A stretch of 8,466 bases of DNA from a virus. Lineage: Duplodnaviria > Heunggongvirae > Uroviricota > Caudoviricetes. Shown piece by piece: positions 1 through 8,466 of this stretch (its first letter is position 1; each line of letters starts with the position of its first letter). A program made the translations under genes and the position numbers. The notes under the pieces were generated by a model. That model made no database searches. It was not told the origin of the DNA and was given only the letters and a program-made list of their open reading frames with translations. The DNA lies in the IMG/VR virus record IMGVR_UViG_2693429635_000026. One strand, 5' to 3'.

Positions 1-483
1 ATGACGAAGAAAAAAGCACATAAACCTGGTTCAGCGACCATCGCGCTTAACAAGCGCGCCCGTCACGAATACTTTATCGAAGAAGAGTTCGAAGCGGGAC
101 TTGCCCTGCAAGGCTGGGAGGTTAAATCCCTGCGCGCAGGAAAAGCCAATATCAGCGACAGCTACGTCCTTCTGCGTGACGGAGAGGCATTTCTGTTTGG
201 CGCTAACATCACGCCAATGGCCGTGGCCTCCACGCATGTGGTGTGCGATCCTACCCGTACCCGCAAGTTACTTCTCAACCAGCGCGAACTGGACTCATTG
301 TACGGTCGCGTCAATCGAGAAGGCTATACCGTAGTGGCGCTCTCCCTGTACTGGAAAAATGCCTGGTGCAAAGTGAAAATCGGCGTCGCCAAAGGTAAAA
401 AACAGCACGATAAACGTTCAGATATCAAAGAACGCGAATGGCAGGTGGATAAAGCACGTATCATGAAAAACGCCCACCGTTAA
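1..483 (+). CDS. smpB: SsrA-binding protein SmpB (trans-translation factor), complete 160 aa
   Basis: ATG at 1, TAA at 481-483. The 160-aa translation ([30 protein letters not shown]...[10 protein letters not shown]) matches enterobacterial SmpB as I recall it, and the gene sits immediately upstream of ssrA as in the conserved smpB-ssrA arrangement. Confidence 0.96.
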
Positions 484-644
484 ACCTGCACTCCAATTAT
501 TGACCAGTTCCTCACCGCGCCTCCCTCTCCGGCGGCGCGAATCAACATCTTATTGGCTATCACATCCGACACAAATGTTGCCATCCCATTGCTTAATCGA
601 ATAAAAATCAGGCTACATGGGTGCTAAATCTTTAACGATAACGC

Positions 645-690
645 CATTGAGGCTGGTCATGGCGCTCATAAATCTGGTATACTTACCTTT
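645..690 (+). promoter_or_regulatory. putative sigma70 promoter for ssrA (extended -10)
   Basis: TGgTATACT at 675-683 is an extended -10 element ending about 15 nt upstream of the mature tmRNA 5' end. The -35 is weak or ambiguous (TGGTCA at 654-659 with 18-bp spacing). Assigned from position and motif only. Confidence 0.4.
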
Positions 691-697
691 ACACATT

Positions 698-1060
698 GGG
701 GCTGATTCTGGATTCGACGGGATTTGCGAAACCCAAGGTGCATGCCGAGGGGCGGTTGGCCTCGTAAAAAGCCGCAAAAAATAGTCGCAAACGACGAAAA
801 CTACGCTTTAGCAGCTTAATAACCTGCTTAGAGCCCTCTCTCCCTAGCCTCCGCTCTTAGGACGGGGATCAAGAGAGGTCAAACCCAAAAGAGATCGCGT
901 GGAAGCCCTGCCTGGGGTTGAAGCGTTAAAACTTAATCAGGCTAGTTTGTTAGTGGCGTGTCCGTCCGCAGCTGGCAAGCGAATGTAAAGACTGACTAAG
1001 CATGTAGTACCGAGGATGTAGGAATTTCGGACGCGGGTTCAACTCCCGCCAGCTCCACCA
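698..1060 (+). ncRNA. ssrA: tmRNA (transfer-messenger RNA, SsrA), full length 363 nt
   Basis: Starts GGGGCTGATTCTGGATTCGACGGG (tRNA-like 5' end). The internal tag frame GCA AAC GAC GAA AAC TAC GCT TTA GCA GCT TAA at 787-819 encodes the degradation tag ANDENYALAA. The 3' end is GGTTCAACTCCCGCCAGCTCCACCA (T-arm, acceptor, CCA) at 1036-1060. Confidence 0.95.
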
Positions 1061-1188
1061 ATCATGATTGGACGGTGTAAGGACAACACCAACAAAAACA
1101 GGAAGTTAGCAGTCTCAGCAGGACACCGACCAGACGGTGAGGAGACAAAAAAGGATACGCAAAGGAGCCGCGGCTCTCAAGTGTGAAA

Positions 1189-1217
1189 GAAGCCCGCAAA
1201 TTGCGGGCTTTTTTATT
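1189..1217 (+). terminator. rho-independent terminator downstream of ssrA
   Basis: GC-rich hairpin AGCCCGC-aaatt-GCGGGCT (1191-1209) followed by a T-run TTTTTTATT. Confidence 0.6.
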
Positions 1218-1269
1218 GATCAGTCAACAATAAACAGTAACCGAATGAGAATTTAATAAGGATATTCAT

Positions 1270-2301
1270 ATGGAAGCTACTGTGGATTCGATTGATTTTC
1301 TGATCCGTAGTGAAGATGATTTTCTAAACTTTCTGGAAGAAATGAAAGCCCGAGAGGGGCTTGATTCTAAAGAGTTTATTTTCCCTAACGTAAAGTTTGC
1401 AGGCTGGCCATCCTTAGACATAAATGTAAAAGGAGAGCGGTATCATTCATCAATTACATCAGCAATGTTGTTTGGTATGTCAATGCTCAACGAGGAGATA
1501 CAGCGGGCGTTTGCAACCATACGATACGGATCGCAGAATCTTCAACGCTTGACTAATGAAGACAAGCAACGACTTGATATAAATTTTAAAATTAGCGAAG
1601 GTTCTAGTGATGCGGAAGGCACCACTGACAAGATCATCAACGCAGTAACTGATTTTTTGCGAGATACTATGTCTGGACTGAACGGCTGGCAGAAAATGCT
1701 TGTTATAATCACAATGGTTGGCGCGGCCAGCACATGTGGTTATCACTACATTTCAGAAAATGCCGTAACAGAAAGACATGCAACTGATCGGCAGGTTGAA
1801 ATTGCAAAAACCACATCCGATGGCATAAACAAAGCCATAGAAGCAACATTAGATTATAAAATCTATGGGAAATCAGCGATTAGCGATAAAGTTACTAGTC
1901 ACGGACAAGCAGGTAAAAGTGCTTTAGTGAAGCAATTAGCTGCTGATCCTACTGTCGAAACCGTGACTTTAGGAAATGAGAAACTAACACGACAAGACCT
2001 AAATACCTACAACAGCCGACAATCTGTAGATAGAGAACGTAAAGAACGAACTGATATATTTTCCATCAAAGGTGTAACCAGAACAGGGCCAACAAATCAG
2101 GATATTAATATTAACGTTGTTAGGGTCTCTAATGACGAATGCTTCACAATCAAAGCTTCAGCTGATGTTATCACCCAAGATGAGTTGACAGCTATTGTTG
2201 ACGCTTTGTCAAACAACTCTCATATTAAAATCAGTTACTTAGAGGTAATTGAAAAGGGTGCTGTTTCTATAGGTCAGTTCAACACTATTGTTTCAGAATA
2301 A
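1270..2301 (+). CDS. hypothetical protein, 343 aa, with a central hydrophobic (putative transmembrane) segment; no recognised domain
   Basis: Long uninterrupted ORF with a Shine-Dalgarno-like AAGGA about 8 nt upstream of the ATG (TAAGGATATTCATATG). AT-rich codon usage consistent along its length. The stretch WQKMLVIITMVGAASTCGYHYI near residues 140-161 is hydrophobic. The antisense ORFs 1480..1746 and 1542..1733 are shadows. Confidence 0.72.
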   Translation: MEATVDSIDFLIRSEDDFLNFLEEMKAREGLDSKEFIFPNVKFAGWPSLDINVKGERYHSSITSAMLFGMSMLNEEIQRAFATIRYGSQNLQRLTNEDKQRLDINFKISEGSSDAEGTTDKIINAVTDFLRDTMSGLNGWQKMLVIITMVGAASTCGYHYISENAVTERHATDRQVEIAKTTSDGINKAIEATLDYKIYGKSAISDKVTSHGQAGKSALVKQLAADPTVETVTLGNEKLTRQDLNTYNSRQSVDRERKERTDIFSIKGVTRTGPTNQDININVVRVSNDECFTIKASADVITQDELTAIVDALSNNSHIKISYLEVIEKGAVSIGQFNTIVSE

Positions 2302-2352
2302 TCACTTAACCCCATTTATGTCGGTTGAGGTTATAAGTCACGGAGACCAGAT

Positions 2353-2697
2353 ATGTCCTTAAAGTATGCACATGAAAAATTTCATACTGCAGTACTTACT
2401 CTTGCGGGCCATGGAAGTATTCAAGAACGCTTGATTAATTCGTATGTTTTTAGCCTTGGGCATCTTAAAACAGCCGATGATATTCCAAATGCCTTACAAA
2501 GCAGGTTCGATGAATTATGTAAGGAACTGACTAAGTTTGATGCCACTGGCGATGAGGGGCGAGTTCAAGCAACAGTATCAAAACTTAACGATTTCGAGAT
2601 CAATAAACTGATCGAAGATATTGTCAGTCTTAACGATGATATTTGCATGAAATTGGCTCTGACGGATGAGACTTACCAAGACATACACCAAAGTTAA
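2353..2697 (+). CDS. hypothetical protein, 114 aa, acidic and probably alpha-helical; likely co-transcribed with the upstream 343-aa ORF
   Basis: ATG at 2353 preceded by GGAGA about 7 nt upstream. Same strand as ORF 1270..2301 with a 51-bp gap, and followed by a hairpin terminator. No recognised motifs. Confidence 0.65.
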   Translation: MSLKYAHEKFHTAVLTLAGHGSIQERLINSYVFSLGHLKTADDIPNALQSRFDELCKELTKFDATGDEGRVQATVSKLNDFEINKLIEDIVSLNDDICMKLALTDETYQDIHQS

Positions 2698-2724
2698 TTG
2701 ATTAAATTCAAAAAGTTAACGTTC

Positions 2725-2750
2725 AACCAGCCAGTTTTTGGCTGGTTTAT
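2725..2750. terminator. putative bidirectional hairpin terminator between convergent genes
   Basis: AACCAGCC-agttttt-GGCTGGTT (8-bp stem, 2725-2747) followed by TTTATTGTC on the plus strand and flanked by an A/T tract on the other side. It lies between the stop of ORF 2353..2697 (+) and the stop of ORF 2782..2994 (-). Confidence 0.45.
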
Positions 2751-2781
2751 TGTCTTATAATATTCTTGCTCGAATGATGCA

Positions 2782-2994
2782 CTATTTATGATGTAATCCG
2801 GACATCAGTTCATGGACAAGATTATCTCTTTCATTGTGTTGCAACCGTAAATGCATAGCAAAAAGGTGAGCACTATCCTCATTCCTCTTCAAGCCATGCT
2901 GTTCAAGATACCCGAAAAAACGGCTTCTCTTATCCGCTATTTCCTGAGTCTGACGTGCAACATTTACCAAATTTTCTAGCGTTTTTCTTGGCAT
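2782..2994 (-). CDS. hypothetical small protein, 70 aa
   Basis: The minus-strand ATG at 2992-2994 is preceded by a strong Shine-Dalgarno AGGAGG (revcomp of CCTCCT at 3002-3007) at good spacing. Basic and His-rich; no family recognised. Confidence 0.5.
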   Translation of the reverse strand: MPRKTLENLVNVARQTQEIADKRSRFFGYLEQHGLKRNEDSAHLFAMHLRLQHNERDNLVHELMSGLHHK

Positions 2995-3192
2995 ACTATT
3001 TCCTCCTGAAATTGTTGTAATTCACTAGGATATTCATTTTAATTTGTATCATTTAGTACCAAAACCGCTATCAATTAACAAAGCCATCGTTGTGGTTTAC
3101 CTTGCAGCCGTTTTTTGTCATTGACTCTATGTGAAAATAATGAATCATCATGAGATTGGCTCACACGTTCTTGAATTCGACGAGCTGTGTCT

Positions 3193-3747
3193 TTATTTAT
3201 CTCCTGCCGGAAACCTCTGATACAAAGTCGATACGCCAACATCATAGATAATCGCAACTTTCTGGCGCGGAACTCCTGATGCAATTAATCGTCCGGCTTG
3301 TGCCCATTGTTCTGGTGTAAGTTTGGGACGACGTCCACCAATTCGTCCCTGTGCGCGAGCAGCTTCCAGTCCAGCTTTTGTTCGTTCAACAATCAGTTCT
3401 CGTTCCATTTCAGCCAGGGCCCCCATCACATGAAAGAAAAAGCGCCCCATTGGGGTACTGGTATCAATTGAATCCGTCAGACTACGAAAGTTGATGCCTC
3501 GTTCGCGCAACTCCTCCACCAGCACGACAAGATGCCGCATACTGCGCCCCAGTCGGTCCAGTTTCCAGACCACCAGCGTATCGCCTGCCGATAATGTCCT
3601 GAGCAGTTTTTTCAGTCCCGGCCTTTCGGACTTTGTACCGCTTATCTTGTCTTCAAAAATCAGCTCGCATCCTGCACAGTTCAGCGCATTACGTTGTAGA
3701 TCTGTGTTCTGGTCATTTGTTGACACACGTACATAGCCAATAAGCAT
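3193..3747 (-). CDS. pin: serine-recombinase DNA invertase, Pin/Gin/Hin/Cin family (184 aa)
   Basis: Translation from the internal Met (MLIGYVRVSTNDQNTDLQRNAL...GDTLVVWKLDRLGRSM...GINFRSLTDSIDTS...MGRFFFHVMGALAEMERELI...) has the resolvase/invertase catalytic N-terminus with the active-site Ser in VRVSTNDQ and a C-terminal HTH-like region. It is close to E. coli Pin as I recall it. I take the start as the ATG at 3745-3747 (SD AGGGAGA upstream) rather than the upstream Met at 3783. A gix/pix-like site lies 55 bp upstream. Confidence 0.93.
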   Translation of the reverse strand: MLIGYVRVSTNDQNTDLQRNALNCAGCELIFEDKISGTKSERPGLKKLLRTLSAGDTLVVWKLDRLGRSMRHLVVLVEELRERGINFRSLTDSIDTSTPMGRFFFHVMGALAEMERELIVERTKAGLEAARAQGRIGGRRPKLTPEQWAQAGRLIASGVPRQKVAIIYDVGVSTLYQRFPAGDK

Positions 3748-3773
3748 GGTAGATCTCCCTGACAAAAGCAGGA

Positions 3774-4268
3774 ATGATGCCATTTGCTCGTTATTTCTGC
3801 ATTTTCATAAACGTTGGTTTGGGAGAAGCGGCAAAACGAAATGTGGGCAACGGGGAAAACCAAATCCCTGATATGTCTTTCTGGACGGTTACTGGTGGCA
3901 ATGGAAATTTTGTGATTCGTCAACCTGACGGGCTAATCATTCAGATGGTTACTGTAAGTATAAGCGGTCCAGTGGCGATGAATGGAATGACTGATAATGC
4001 TTATGCCATTACAGGTTCTAATAAGTCTTATATTGCCACAGCCACATTGCCCTTTGTATTTCCTAATAAGGTGCTGGGCGTTATCCCTCTGGTATCAACA
4101 ACAGCTTATGGTGGTGTATCCAGTAATATTACAGGTTCATACGCGACGGCGGTTTGTTCTTTTGCCGCTGTCAGGGGGAATAATACGATTGTGTTCAAAG
4201 TCGACAAACCACTGAATGCAGCCTTTCCTTCAGATACCAGCGTCTCAGCGTTAATCATTGGACGGTAA
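3774..4268 (+). CDS. silent tail-fibre variable C-terminal cassette (Sv copy) with no constant N-terminal region
   Basis: From about 3816 onward the reading frame is identical to the C-terminal roughly 150 aa of the tail fibre gene at 7063..7806 ([17 protein letters not shown]...SALIIGR). The first roughly 14 codons (MMPFARYFCIFINV) are antisense read-through of the pin leader and are not part of the homologous sequence. Probably not expressed in this orientation. Confidence 0.5.
   Translation: MMPFARYFCIFINVGLGEAAKRNVGNGENQIPDMSFWTVTGGNGNFVIRQPDGLIIQMVTVSISGPVAMNGMTDNAYAITGSNKSYIATATLPFVFPNKVLGVIPLVSTTAYGGVSSNITGSYATAVCSFAAVRGNNTIVFKVDKPLNAAFPSDTSVSALIIGR
3802..3827 (+). other. invertase crossover site A (gix/hix/pix-like 26-bp site, proximal to pin)
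   Basis: TTTTCATAAACG-TT-GGTTTGGGAGAA. The half-sites fit the TTnTCnnAAACC pattern of Hin/Gin-family sites around a central 2-bp crossover. The inner half plus crossover (TTGGTTTGGGAGAA) is identical to sites B and C. Confidence 0.6.
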
Positions 4269-4270
4269 GA

Positions 4271-4714
4271 ATGAACTCAGTATTCTTTTCACCCGCAAGT
4301 AAAAGTTTTTATCTGCAAGAATTGTTTCCAGAATATGAGGATGCGGGAACGCTTCCTGATGATGTTATTGAAATTACCAGAGAAACATATGAGCAATTTC
4401 TTGGGCTGCATCCAGAAGGGAAAGAAATTGGCGCTGACAGTTCAGGACGGCCAATATGGATTAATTCCCCGCCGCCTTCAAAAGAGGATGAGATGCTGGC
4501 GGCTGAAATGAAAAAGATATCTTTGGTTTCAGAAGTCAATACCTACATCAATACCCATCAGTGGCCTGGCAAAGCTGCTATTGGTCGTCTGAAAGGTTAC
4601 GAGCTGGAACAATATAATTTATGGCTGGATTATCTGGACGCACTGGAACTGGTTGATACCTCCAGTGCTCCAGATATTGAATGGCCTACGCCTCCGGTAG
4701 TTCAGGCCAGATGA
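4271..4714 (+). CDS. tail fibre assembly protein (Mu U-like chaperone), copy A
   Basis: 147 aa with the Tfa-type C-terminal motif ...DTSSAPDIEWPTPP. Starts 2 bp after the Sv stop, suggesting translational coupling. Identical to the ORF at 6617..7060 (-). Confidence 0.82.
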   Translation: MNSVFFSPASKSFYLQELFPEYEDAGTLPDDVIEITRETYEQFLGLHPEGKEIGADSSGRPIWINSPPPSKEDEMLAAEMKKISLVSEVNTYINTHQWPGKAAIGRLKGYELEQYNLWLDYLDALELVDTSSAPDIEWPTPPVVQAR

Positions 4715-5291
4715 CATCCGGCGCGGTGCTGGTATCTGTTGCAGTCACCGCGTCAATGTAATCCAGCACAGCGTTAAGCCGGGTTGTTTCTGCCTGCGTC
4801 AGCTTCCGCCCGGCCTGCAATTTCAGCTGAATCAGACTAATGGAAGCCATAGCAGCATCAATCAGTGACTGGCGCCGTACTTCTGCCGCGTCTACTGCGG
4901 CGTTATGCTGTGCCTCAGTATCGGTCACCCATTTCTCACCATCCCATTTATCGTATGACGTTAACGGGGCGATAGTGGTTGTATTTTCAGGGTAATCACC
5001 CGGAACTGTGATTTCTTTTGATTCTCCTGTTTCGGTGCTATAGACGATTTCACCGCGATGGTCTGGCACATATTCCCATGAGTTAAAATCTGCAGAACGG
5101 CAAATTGCATAACCAGCTTTATATGAGCCAGGAGCATCTAAACAGGAACATGCCGGGATACCAACACCCACAGCAAGATATTCAGTTGATGTGGAAATAT
5201 ATTCCCGTGTTTCACCATCATAATTATAAACGGTAATGTCTCCGGCCTTTGTGGCGATGAGTTCATTATTTAATACAGCTTTACTTATCAT
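4686..5291 (-). CDS. tail fibre assembly protein (Mu U'-like chaperone), copy A
   Basis: 201 aa ending ...DTSTAPDVIWPELPEA (Tfa family C-terminal motif). Identical to the ORF at 6040..6645 (+). Its 3' end overlaps the 3' end of 4271..4714 convergently by 29 bp. Confidence 0.82.
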   Translation of the reverse strand: MISKAVLNNELIATKAGDITVYNYDGETREYISTSTEYLAVGVGIPACSCLDAPGSYKAGYAICRSADFNSWEYVPDHRGEIVYSTETGESKEITVPGDYPENTTTIAPLTSYDKWDGEKWVTDTEAQHNAAVDAAEVRRQSLIDAAMASISLIQLKLQAGRKLTQAETTRLNAVLDYIDAVTATDTSTAPDVIWPELPEA

Positions 5292-5570
5292 GCAGCCCTC
5301 ACAATATAATTAAAGGCGATGTTACGGGAGCGGGTTTCAGATGCTGTGCGAACTGAGCGAGATGCGTCGAATGTCCAGTTATAAGCGCCATAACCCTCAA
5401 TAATTTCGGCTTCCTTTAGACCTGTAGATAATACTTGCCCATGTTGACTAAATGGCCCTGAACTAAGTACGTCTCTAAAAAGCTGGGTACGCCCAAAAGA
5501 ACCAACAATATTCTGAATTGCATCATTCTGTGCAGATAATAAGTTACGACCAGAGTCAATCCCGCGCCCA
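5288..5570 (-). pseudogene. 5'-truncated copy of the tail-collar-type variable cassette Sv' (C-terminal roughly 93 codons, no start)
   Basis: Reverse complement of 5761..6043, which is the C-terminal part of ORF 5576..6043 (...ETRSRNIAFNYIVRAA). The duplication breakpoint at 5570/5571 cuts the cassette mid-gene, and there is no in-frame Met in the retained part. Confidence 0.55.
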
Positions 5571-5584
5571 TTGGTTTGGGAGAA
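5559..5584 (+). other. invertase crossover site C (conserved inner half and crossover, degenerate outer half)
   Basis: ATCCCGCGCCCA-TT-GGTTTGGGAGAA. The crossover and inner half are identical to sites A and B, but the outer half is a poor match. Recombination with site B would fuse the constant part of S in frame to Sv'. Confidence 0.55.
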
Positions 5585-6043
5585 GGTTCGGCATTACCCG
5601 TTGGTGTGCCTGTTCCGTGGCCTTCCGCCACTCCGCCAACGGGGTGGCTAAAATGTAACGGAGCAGTATTTTCTTCTGAAAAGTACCCAAATCTGGCAAA
5701 GGCTTACCCAACATTAAAATTACCAGATTTACGCGGTGAATTTATTCGTGGCTGGGATGATGGGCGCGGGATTGACTCTGGTCGTAACTTATTATCTGCA
5801 CAGAATGATGCAATTCAGAATATTGTTGGTTCTTTTGGGCGTACCCAGCTTTTTAGAGACGTACTTAGTTCAGGGCCATTTAGTCAACATGGGCAAGTAT
5901 TATCTACAGGTCTAAAGGAAGCCGAAATTATTGAGGGTTATGGCGCTTATAACTGGACATTCGACGCATCTCGCTCAGTTCGCACAGCATCTGAAACCCG
6001 CTCCCGTAACATCGCCTTTAATTATATTGTGAGGGCTGCATGA
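5576..6043 (+). CDS. alternative tail-fibre variable C-terminal cassette Sv' (phage tail-collar-like receptor-binding domain), currently unfused
   Basis: The translation carries motifs I recall from tail-fibre C-termini of the tail-collar type (ALPVGVPVPWPSATPPTGWLKCNGAVFSSEKYPNLA...LPDLRGEFIRGWDDGRGIDSGR...ETRSRNIAFNYIVRAA). The ORF-track start is a TTG lying inside site C, so the real product would be made only as a fusion after inversion. Its stop overlaps the downstream tfa start (ATGA). Confidence 0.75.
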   Translation: MGEGSALPVGVPVPWPSATPPTGWLKCNGAVFSSEKYPNLAKAYPTLKLPDLRGEFIRGWDDGRGIDSGRNLLSAQNDAIQNIVGSFGRTQLFRDVLSSGPFSQHGQVLSTGLKEAEIIEGYGAYNWTFDASRSVRTASETRSRNIAFNYIVRAA

Positions 6044-6645
6044 TAAGTAAAGCTGTATTAAATAATGAACTCATCGCCACAAAGGCCGGAGACATTACCG
6101 TTTATAATTATGATGGTGAAACACGGGAATATATTTCCACATCAACTGAATATCTTGCTGTGGGTGTTGGTATCCCGGCATGTTCCTGTTTAGATGCTCC
6201 TGGCTCATATAAAGCTGGTTATGCAATTTGCCGTTCTGCAGATTTTAACTCATGGGAATATGTGCCAGACCATCGCGGTGAAATCGTCTATAGCACCGAA
6301 ACAGGAGAATCAAAAGAAATCACAGTTCCGGGTGATTACCCTGAAAATACAACCACTATCGCCCCGTTAACGTCATACGATAAATGGGATGGTGAGAAAT
6401 GGGTGACCGATACTGAGGCACAGCATAACGCCGCAGTAGACGCGGCAGAAGTACGGCGCCAGTCACTGATTGATGCTGCTATGGCTTCCATTAGTCTGAT
6501 TCAGCTGAAATTGCAGGCCGGGCGGAAGCTGACGCAGGCAGAAACAACCCGGCTTAACGCTGTGCTGGATTACATTGACGCGGTGACTGCAACAGATACC
6601 AGCACCGCGCCGGATGTCATCTGGCCTGAACTACCGGAGGCGTAG
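6040..6645 (+). CDS. tail fibre assembly protein (U'-like), copy B, cognate chaperone of Sv'
   Basis: 201 aa, Tfa C-terminal motif, start overlapping the Sv' stop (ATGA), SD GAGGG upstream. Confidence 0.88.
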   Translation: MISKAVLNNELIATKAGDITVYNYDGETREYISTSTEYLAVGVGIPACSCLDAPGSYKAGYAICRSADFNSWEYVPDHRGEIVYSTETGESKEITVPGDYPENTTTIAPLTSYDKWDGEKWVTDTEAQHNAAVDAAEVRRQSLIDAAMASISLIQLKLQAGRKLTQAETTRLNAVLDYIDAVTATDTSTAPDVIWPELPEA

Positions 6646-7060
6646 GCCATTCAATATCTGGAGCACTGGAGGTATCAACCAGTTCCAGTGCGTCCAGATA
6701 ATCCAGCCATAAATTATATTGTTCCAGCTCGTAACCTTTCAGACGACCAATAGCAGCTTTGCCAGGCCACTGATGGGTATTGATGTAGGTATTGACTTCT
6801 GAAACCAAAGATATCTTTTTCATTTCAGCCGCCAGCATCTCATCCTCTTTTGAAGGCGGCGGGGAATTAATCCATATTGGCCGTCCTGAACTGTCAGCGC
6901 CAATTTCTTTCCCTTCTGGATGCAGCCCAAGAAATTGCTCATATGTTTCTCTGGTAATTTCAATAACATCATCAGGAAGCGTTCCCGCATCCTCATATTC
7001 TGGAAACAATTCTTGCAGATAAAAACTTTTACTTGCGGGTGAAAAGAATACTGAGTTCAT
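6617..7060 (-). CDS. tail fibre assembly protein (U-like), copy B, cognate chaperone of the expressed tail fibre
   Basis: 147 aa. Starts 2 bp after the stop of the tail fibre gene at 7063..7806 on the same strand. Tfa-type C-terminus. Confidence 0.88.
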   Translation of the reverse strand: MNSVFFSPASKSFYLQELFPEYEDAGTLPDDVIEITRETYEQFLGLHPEGKEIGADSSGRPIWINSPPPSKEDEMLAAEMKKISLVSEVNTYINTHQWPGKAAIGRLKGYELEQYNLWLDYLDALELVDTSSAPDIEWPTPPVVQAR

Positions 7061-7062
7061 TC

Positions 7063-7806
7063 TTACCGTCCAATGATTAACGCTGAGACGCTGGTATCTG
7101 AAGGAAAGGCTGCATTCAGTGGTTTGTCGACTTTGAACACAATCGTATTATTCCCCCTGACAGCGGCAAAAGAACAAACCGCCGTCGCGTATGAACCTGT
7201 AATATTACTGGATACACCACCATAAGCTGTTGTTGATACCAGAGGGATAACGCCCAGCACCTTATTAGGAAATACAAAGGGCAATGTGGCTGTGGCAATA
7301 TAAGACTTATTAGAACCTGTAATGGCATAAGCATTATCAGTCATTCCATTCATCGCCACTGGACCGCTTATACTTACAGTAACCATCTGAATGATTAGCC
7401 CGTCAGGTTGACGAATCACAAAATTTCCATTGCCACCAGTAACCGTCCAGAAAGACATATCAGGGATTTGGTTTTCCCCGTTGCCCACATTTCGTTTTGC
7501 CGCTTCTCCCAAACCAAGGTTTTCGAGAGCCGTTTTCACCGTGCCATCAGATTTGATATCGCCAAACGGATTCTTGCGGCTTAACAGCAGCGCACGAAGC
7601 GCGGTAAGCAGCTGGTCATGCCGCCCCTTCTCCAGGCTGGCACCGGATGCCTCCACCACGCTGCAGAGTTCTTCCTGCAACATGTCAAAGTAGTCATCAT
7701 CCAGATCGGTGGCAGGTGTGCCGGTCTGGGGGTTACCACGGGTAAAACCGTTCTTACCCGCGCCGAACTTATCCTTCTGCGCGGTTTTCGTGTCTATACG
7801 ATGCAT
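7063..7806 (-). CDS. phage tail fibre protein S (constant N-terminal part 7518..7806 fused to variable part Sv 7063..7517), 247 aa
   Basis: ATG at 7804-7806 (minus strand) with SD GGAG upstream, immediately after the stop of the upstream tail gene. Crossover site B lies inside the ORF at the ...ENLG|LGEAA... junction, as expected for Mu S, P1 and e14-type invertible tail fibre genes. Confidence 0.88.
7504..7529 (+). other. invertase crossover site B (gix/pix-like, inside the tail fibre gene at the constant/variable boundary)
   Basis: Plus strand TTCTCCCAAACC-AA-GGTTTTCGAGAG. Its reverse complement CTCTCGAAAACC-TT-GGTTTGGGAGAA is inverted relative to sites A and C, with both half-sites fitting the TTnTCnnAAACC pattern. 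Confidence 0.65.
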
Positions 7807-7809
7807 GGA

Positions 7810-8464
<655 letters not shown>

Positions 8465-8466
8465 CT

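Follow-up and report, generated by a model that had tools for sequence, protein, structure and literature searches.

The stretch of DNA analyzed here, IMG/VR virus record IMGVR_UViG_2693429635_000026 (8,466 nt; the window), contains a tail-fibre gene, S, whose variable 3′ part lies in a DNA segment bounded by crossover sites for the DNA invertase Pin, encoded by the adjoining gene pin (Table 1). From pin through the 3.7-kb tail-fibre region, the features follow one another in the order pin, site A (+), the variable tip Sv with its chaperone gene U (+), the chaperone gene U′ (−), 283 nt from the 3′ end of a second variable tip, Sv′ (−), site C (+), Sv′ and U′ (+), U and Sv (−), site B (−), and the constant part of S, Sc. 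A preliminary description had presented this arrangement as a Pin-type invertase switch with three crossover sites and two receptor-binding tips extending from position 3802 to 7529, and these limits do coincide with the outer ends of the two 26-bp crossover sites, A and B.

Table 1. Features of the window, in order of position (ORF, open reading frame; tmRNA, transfer-messenger RNA).
Feature	Coordinates	Strand	Basis
smpB	1..483	+	ORF; annotated SmpB in the identical locus of strain 602687
ssrA tmRNA gene, prophage attachment locus	698..1060	+	ARAGORN tmRNA, tag ANDENYALAA
pin, 184-aa serine DNA invertase	3193..3747	−	Pfam Resolvase 1.5e-51, HTH_7 3.6e-13
Pin-proximal ORF with Sv tip, copy 1, unfused to constant part	3774..4268	+	ORF; same 164-aa product called in H-state relatives
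Site A, complete 26-bp crossover site, TTTTCATAAACG-TT-GGTTTGGGAGAA	3802..3827	+	Equal to the pin-proximal e14 site
Left arm of inverted duplication; silent Sv, U, U′, 3′ fragment of Sv′	3809..5571	.	Inverted-repeat analysis
U, assembly chaperone for Sv, copy 1	4271..4714	+	Caudo_TAP 6.4e-27
U′, assembly chaperone for Sv′, copy 1	4686..5291	−	Caudo_TAP 6e-32; identical to 6040-6645
3′ fragment of Sv′ (283 nt), copy 1, cut at the novel joint	5288..5570	−	Mirror image of 5761-6043
Site C, hybrid, ATCCCGCGCCCA-TT-GGTTTGGGAGAA	5559..5584	+	TT and inner half cognate; outer half is interior Sv′ coding sequence
188-nt spacer: rest of site C core and first ~175 nt of Sv′	5572..5759	+	Inverted-repeat analysis
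Sv′ variable tip, tail-collar domain, full copy, currently silent	5576..6043	+	Pfam Collar 1.4e-15; phrog_523 tail collar fiber 1.4e-73
U′ chaperone, copy 2	6040..6645	+	Caudo_TAP 6e-32
U chaperone, copy 2	6617..7060	−	Identical to 4271-4714
S tail-fibre gene, current form, Sc (~residues 1–97) fused to Sv tip, 247 aa	7063..7806	−	phrog_1396 tail fiber 2.4e-60
Site B, complete 26-bp crossover site, CTCTCGAAAACC-TT-GGTTTGGGAGAA	7504..7529	−	Equal to the e14 site in stfP
Mu gp48/YmfQ-like baseplate gene, last prophage gene remaining	7810..8382	−	Pfam Phage_Mu_Gp48 8.7e-27
Start of the IS3-family element truncating the prophage	8374..8466	+	Comparison with relatives

The deduced product of pin has the organization that defines the Din family (Hin, Gin, Cin and Pin), with a predicted N-terminal catalytic domain and a C-terminal helix-turn-helix domain, and the motifs YVRVSTNDQ and DRLGR are readable in its translation. 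It is identical to PinE from the e14 prophage of Escherichia coli K-12 in 180 of 184 residues (98 %), with 95 % nucleotide identity over the first 200 nt of the gene, and its closest solved structure is that of Gin (3UJ3, E=1.3e-93, residues 1–181). The Resolvase and HTH_7 domains and the match to Gin thus agree with the initial assignment of the system to the Pin-type serine-invertase switches. A loose scan for Fis motifs, aimed at the Fis-bound recombinational enhancer that systems of this family have near one site, in the 5′ part of the invertase gene, returned a single pair in the window, 47 bp apart, which was not reproduced in K-12. Among the related loci that we collected (L numbers), those of the UTI89/APEC (avian pathogenic E. 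coli) O18 type (L023, L025, L029 and L030) have an intact fibre segment and a pin gene reduced to a 42-aa Resolvase fragment beside a GmrSD gene, and no pin gene was called in L024 and L026–L028. Self-driven flipping should be impossible in these copies.

The 14-mer TTGGTTTGGGAGAA, formed by the crossover dinucleotide and the inner half-site, occurs in exactly three copies, at 3814–3827 (+), 5571–5584 (+) and 7504–7517 (−), with the copy in site B inverted, as had been described; three matches were obtained in none of 200 dinucleotide shuffles. Sites A and B display the layout expected for the Din family, being inverted 26-bp sequences composed of two 12-bp half-sites around a 2-bp crossover, and site B is located within S, at the boundary between its constant and variable parts (ENLGLGE). 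To score half-sites we used a weight matrix made from the outer half-sites of 38 natural sites in 19 related loci, which comprised 11 distinct sequences and, together with the common inner half, amounted to 12. The outer halves of A and B scored +13.1 and +10.8 bits, respectively, and the common inner half +14.5 bits. We take these sites to be of the pix type, and not of the gix or cix type. The inverted repeat of e14 has been published as TTGGTTTGGGAGAAGG (PMC12529663).

The 247-aa S protein encoded in the window is also found next after gp48 in intact prophages. The idea of two alternative receptor-binding tips holds in that either Sv or Sv′ can be fused to the constant part and each is accompanied by a Caudo_TAP chaperone; as to their nature, Sv′ contains a collar domain, and the match of Sv to gp53-like_C is below threshold. 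Genes U and U′, located on opposite strands, converge and share their 3′-terminal 29 nt (4686–4714 and 6617–6645). With a constant N-terminus outside the segment, and two C-termini in opposite orientations, each with its own chaperone, the deduced gene arrangement corresponds to that of a switch of the Mu G-segment type.

We designate as H the state with Sv adjoining pin and Sv′ fused to S, and as F the opposite state, in which Sv is fused to S. A single segment, in either orientation, is present in genomes that do not differ from the window over the locus: the same locus, truncated by the IS3-family element and with a single segment of 1.9 kb, occurs as H in strain 602687 (L001) and as F in CD45 (L009), PS1Thumoskin9 (L010) and a further assembly (L005), and flipping L001 in silico reproduced L009 exactly over the 5200 nt compared. 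Among 5,426 complete E. coli genomes, 767 have the Sv tip adjoining pin and 770 have it fused to S. When the best 60 records for the junction of Sv with the pin side were compared with the best 60 for its junction with S, only one record appeared in both lists, with the two junctions at distant loci. This natural variation among other genomes clearly indicates that the segment inverts in nature. The 1947-nt cassette Sv′-U′-U-Sv (5571–7517 in the window) showed 6–10 differences with six of seven related loci (L013–L019) and 27 with the remaining one, L017. The prophages concerned differ strongly in their tail modules, which are Mu-like, P2-like or of a third baseplate type. It seems that the cassette is passed between phage types in one piece, inner half-sites included.

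The underlying switch is already known, since it combines the P-segment/Pin system of e14 with the layout of the Mu G segment, and its identity as an e14-type Pin switch is nearly certain from the comparison of genes and sites. As in the e14 P segment with PinE of strain K-12 (Plasterk and van de Putte, 1985; Kirigo et al., 2025, PMC12529663), with which both 26-bp sites are identical, the gene order is ymfQ-S-U/U′-Sv′-pin, and a segment that still flips lies in a defective prophage; residues 1–106 of S are 97 % identical to StfP and the gp48-like neighbour is 98 % identical to YmfQ. The locus thus possesses a PinE orthologue, the crossover sites of e14 and a constant region of the StfP type. 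However, e14 is inserted at icd, whereas the locus studied here is at ssrA, and the tips are different: the Sv part of S has no similarity to StfP past residue 106, and the identity is 54 % between U and TfaP and 57 % between Sv′ and StfE. A further difference is that the record analyzed here carries an inverted partial duplication and the hybrid site C. The G segment of Mu with Gin and the C segment of P1 with Cin share with this locus the position of Sc outside the segment, the opposed Sv-U and Sv′-U′ pairs inside it, an invertase gene situated just outside and crossover at a central dinucleotide, and the tail-gene neighbours in intact relatives are also Mu-like (gp44–gp48). In contrast to Mu and P1, the constant part here has only ~100 residues and there is no functional phage.

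The inverted repeat particular to the window spans 1763 nt, with arms at 3809–5571 and 5760–7522 separated by 188 nt, and the sole mismatch between the arms (3813/7518) falls at a position at which the outer half-site of A differs from that of B. The Sv′ fragment in the left arm lacks both a start codon and its own crossover site. Base for base, the window consists of positions 1–5570 of the H form of strain 602687 followed by its flipped form, F, beginning at position 3814 with the TT of site A. This leaves a single novel joint, ...CCCGCGCCCA/TTGGTTTGGG..., which is site C. Homology to other collar genes, with 83–90 % identity, stops at ~5763–5785, close to position 5760 without coinciding with it, and gives no information on a natural mosaic boundary at the breakpoint.

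Sequence comparison makes it nearly certain that site C is a hybrid and not a cognate third site. Each of the 11 distinct outer half-sites from natural loci has a T-rich start and an A-tract at positions 8–10, and this tract is absent from the outer half of site C, ATCCCGCGCCCA, which scored −7.2 bits versus +5.1 to +14.5 for the 12 natural half-sites; 33 % of the positions in the segment score at least as high. The parental Sv′ 26-mer, CGTGGCTGGGATGATGGGCGCGGGAT, was matched or beaten as a whole by 88 % of segment positions. As scored here, site C does not conform to the definition of a Din-family site, and Pin would probably use it poorly. What had been counted as a third copy of the crossover site thus exists only as the joint of the duplication, with an outer half that scores like random DNA, and counting repeats of the core alone overstates the number of working recombination sites at a locus.

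These scores also bear on the possibility that Pin itself made the joint, by an unequal exchange between site A on one sister chromosome, in state F, and a quasi-site in Sv′ on the other, in state H, leaving a duplication. The joint lies at the crossover dinucleotide and one of the central bases matches, the parental Sv′ sequence having TC where the site has TT; moreover, Iida and Hiestand-Nauer reportedly described recombination at quasi-sites for Cin of phage P1. Nevertheless, the half retained at the joint scored −7.2 bits and the lost half −20 bits, the full 26-mer ranks below most of the segment as stated above, and the A-tract common to all natural outer halves is not present. Judged by the matrix of 12 half-sites, the Sv′ breakpoint has no likeness to a site and was rejected as a Pin quasi-site. 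In addition, wild-type invertases are strongly restricted to intramolecular inversion in an enhancer-bound complex. For these reasons we regard a quasi-site exchange as improbable.

All pairwise reactions among A, B and C were simulated in silico, and six states proved reachable. Inversion between A and B altered only the spacer (5572–5759), S remaining the same 247-aa Sc-Sv fusion, in agreement with the earlier proposal that this reaction regenerates the fusion while flipping the central spacer. Inversion between B and C, also as proposed, joined the constant part in frame to Sv′; the predicted 253-aa S protein (...ENLGLGEGSALPVGVPVPWPSATPPTGWLKCNG...) is the product annotated as WP_053881273.1 at the same locus in strain 602687. 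This second inversion turned the two copies into direct repeats of 1.76 kb, from which the normal H state was reached through deletion between A and C and could probably also be reached by homologous recombination. Deletion between A and C from the present state gave the normal F state. According to the simulation, and provided that site C is as weak as its score suggests, exposure of Sv′ would require either an event at the crippled site C or loss of the duplication. Since A and B, the only fully cognate pair, leave S unchanged, the switch would be phenotypically locked if just the cognate sites work.

Invertase systems with more than two sites do exist, and Min of plasmid p15B has six. A switch in a P2-like prophage of enteropathogenic E. 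coli (EPEC; Goldberg et al., 2014, PMC4272514) has three repeats and three alternative C-termini, and four variants of it coexist. As in those two systems, the core occurs more than twice within a single tail-fibre region of the window, which in principle allows more than two isomers, and it could be argued that A, B and C constitute an evolved multiple-inversion system, all of them working in a phage host-range switch. The three exact copies of the TT and inner half-site, the in-frame and naturally occurring fusion obtained from B and C, and the EPEC precedent agree with this idea. However, the p15B and EPEC systems contain cognate sites and distinct C-terminal cassettes, whereas here one half of the third site is non-cognate, and the additional DNA is no diverged cassette but a perfect copy in inverted orientation. 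A shufflon-like system would have at least three cognate sites giving more than two C-termini, and from the sequence only two tips and two complete sites can be recognized. Furthermore, all related loci examined have exactly two cores, except for the artefact-like L012, the arrangement was not found in any collection searched, and the prophage is truncated and can yield no virion. An evolved three-site system is thus already largely refuted, and we consider it very improbable.

The joint can be explained in another way, as the result of faulty repair at site A. Pin, a small serine invertase, acts by cutting a pair of inverted 26-bp sites at their central TT and flipping the DNA between them, so that Sc is fused in one orientation to Sv (with U) and in the other to the collar-type Sv′ (with U′). 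The inverted copy would be very recent and comprise most of the segment, from inside Sv′ to the core of site B, inserted at the TT of site A. We propose that a double-strand break made by Pin at this site was mis-repaired: the right-hand cleavage product, with a 3′ AA end, would fold back 188 nt inside Sv′ and prime synthesis on a single paired base (5571 with 5760), and synthesis would then copy back through site B and rejoin the pin side at the 15-nt core.

The spacer does start exactly at the crossover point of site A, and position 5571 is complementary to 5760. In the reaction of serine invertases all four strands are broken at the crossover point, and the activity of Hin increases local rearrangement rates by 3–4 orders of magnitude. 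A partner that is not a site, together with a short spacer, fits fold-back priming. Inverted duplications of the fold-back (snap-back) type form at DNA breaks or at short palindromes, and tandem inversion duplications of this kind were reportedly found in Salmonella by Kugelberg and colleagues in 2010; they resemble the structure described here in the inverted copy, in the short spacer beginning at a DNA end and in the minimal microhomology at the joint. They differ in that the break proposed here would be the cleavage point of a recombinase, and in that the far end would be resolved at a 15-nt core. We infer that break repair is the origin of the joint, and slightly favour it over the other explanations; for the complete statement, that is, an e14-type Pin switch plus a duplication from the mis-repair of a Pin-made break, we consider the chances to be even.

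Several observations weigh against this origin, beginning with the rarity of the joint. Searches were made with an exact 38-mer and 20-mer in GTDB representatives, JGI metagenomes and IMG/VR, and with a 100-nt BLAST query in complete E. coli genomes, phages and plasmids (PLSDB). The joint was present in none of the 5,426 complete E. coli genomes, where the best BLAST match covered 51 of 100 bases, and the other collections yielded nothing but a chance match to the 20-mer in an unrelated Sphingobacterium genome. Neither was it found in ~60 related contigs. The reality of the duplication rests on one record. Additionally, the bases preceding the TT differ (G versus C), so that the TT is also the first base common to the contexts of A and B; an assembly-graph node would start there, and the position is then no proof of cleavage by Pin. 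Priming of a fold-back on a single paired base is weak chemistry. A perfect inverted repeat of 1.76 kb with a 188-nt spacer should also be a target for SbcCD and RecA. Lastly, deposited assemblies do hold artefacts at loci of this kind.

Two such cases were met among the related loci. L012 (GCA_019583665.1, VDBH01000001.1; positions 4800–11200) is a related prophage at the chromosomal position of e14 that contains seven crossover cores, repeats of 115-nt blocks with 100 % identity and, at 7881–8010, a perfect palindrome lacking a spacer, and looks like strung-together junction pieces of an assembly graph, not biology. The second, L033 (CP148528.1), was deposited as a circular plasmid of 1923 bp, pZ1322PEC0232-2; it corresponds to positions 13–1935 of the invertible segment, with 99.5 % identity and without cores, and is almost certainly the invertible segment emitted by the assembler as a separate circle. 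The remaining related loci fetched have exactly two cores each, and when the 247-aa S, the 155-aa Sv′ and the product (164 aa) of the pin-proximal ORF were looked up, only single-segment loci and L012 were retrieved. For the two ORFs that span the joint (71 and 52 aa) there was no matching protein on record.

The duplication and site C could thus be an artefact of assembly or sequencing in an otherwise ordinary and real switch, created by joining an H stretch to an F stretch from a mixed culture or a chimeric molecule. This would account for a window that has no base of its own beyond those of the two states, with arms that are perfectly identical outside the mismatched half-site position, and for a right breakpoint at the start of the sequence common to both orientations, which is a natural boundary for a graph node; the lack of the joint in any other sequence searched, and the flawed public assemblies L012 and CP148528.1, agree with it. 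However, a path through a graph would take the whole segment node, and not 1743 of its ~1930 nt, and the window has no k-mer-sized blocks, unlike L012. The left breakpoint lies within Sv′ and coincides with no repeat, and the sequences joined have only 1 nt in common. If a random chimeric long read were the source, its start would have to fall exactly on the TT by chance. We rejected the signature of a de Bruijn graph as an explanation: near-identical second copies of the segment have single nucleotide polymorphisms at positions 17, 20, 29 and 56, with the next only at 598, a pattern that demands an unusual k of ~134–135 for a node to end at position 190, although unusual software could still produce it. 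An artefact has, in our view, a substantial probability, short of an even chance. Returning to break repair, the full set of its implications, namely a real duplication left as a natural footprint by invertase damage, with mis-repair by fold-back, a half-cognate third site and S locked on Sv, is put forward as a tentative and rather doubtful proposal.

The host-range role attributed to the switch in the preliminary description finds no basis in what remains of the prophage, which is a dead stump at ssrA in E. coli. Intact relatives at the same ssrA position (L002, L004 and L011) have a full Mu-like tail module upstream of gp48, comprising sheath, tube, tape measure and gp44–gp48. L004 and L011 align to the window only as far as 8373, whereas L001, L005, L009 and L010 align through to 8466 and contain an IS3-family transposase there. 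Beyond 8373, the window thus has an IS3-family element instead of the sheath, tube, tape-measure and baseplate genes of the intact relatives, and the element removes the prophage from 8374, leaving neither further tail genes nor head genes. Because the element cuts off the prophage just past the gp48/YmfQ-like gene, no virion can form. A functional host-range switch requires a complete set of virion genes, which is lacking here, and the switch is a relic, like that of e14. The truncation point, 8373/8374, is common to L001, L005, L009 and L010 and, therefore, to both orientation states; if the IS3 truncation happened once, Pin would have gone on flipping the segment after the death of the prophage. 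Inversion of the e14 P segment was recently reported to block adsorption of phage T2 (PMC12529663), and by analogy a host-side role is conceivable for the switch described here.

The switch itself adds nothing new to the e14 Pin system, which has matching sequence in thousands of E. coli genomes, and the duplication peculiar to this record is a small new variation that may or may not be real. If true, it would be a rare natural case of a site-specific invertase damaging its own locus, in which one structural accident silences a phase-variable switch with the recombinase and two cognate sites untouched. The cell would then possess the Sc-Sv and pin-proximal Sv forms at once, and the normal reaction between A and B would be uncoupled from fibre switching, which could matter if fibre chimeras of cryptic prophages act in phage defence, as reported for StfE2 of e14. 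If it is an artefact, the record is a warning that segments in mixed orientation in a culture can yield false structures in assemblies, as with the seven-core tangle of L012 and the 1.9-kb 'plasmid'.

On the other side of pin, a GC-rich hairpin followed by a T-run (gaagcccgcaaattgcgggctttttt; 1186–1215), ~125 nt 3′ of ssrA, resembles an intrinsic terminator. The interval between ssrA and pin (1270–2994) contains three ORFs, of 343, 114 and 70 aa, none of which had a match in Pfam or PADLOC, and the sole match of the 343-aa ORF was to phrog_6191, of unknown function. The same slot is occupied in L002 by a Peptidase_S24/IMS (UmuDC-like) pair with a faint match to KAP NTPase, and in L003 and L008 by GmrSD, so that it is a variable cargo spot at the end of the prophage.

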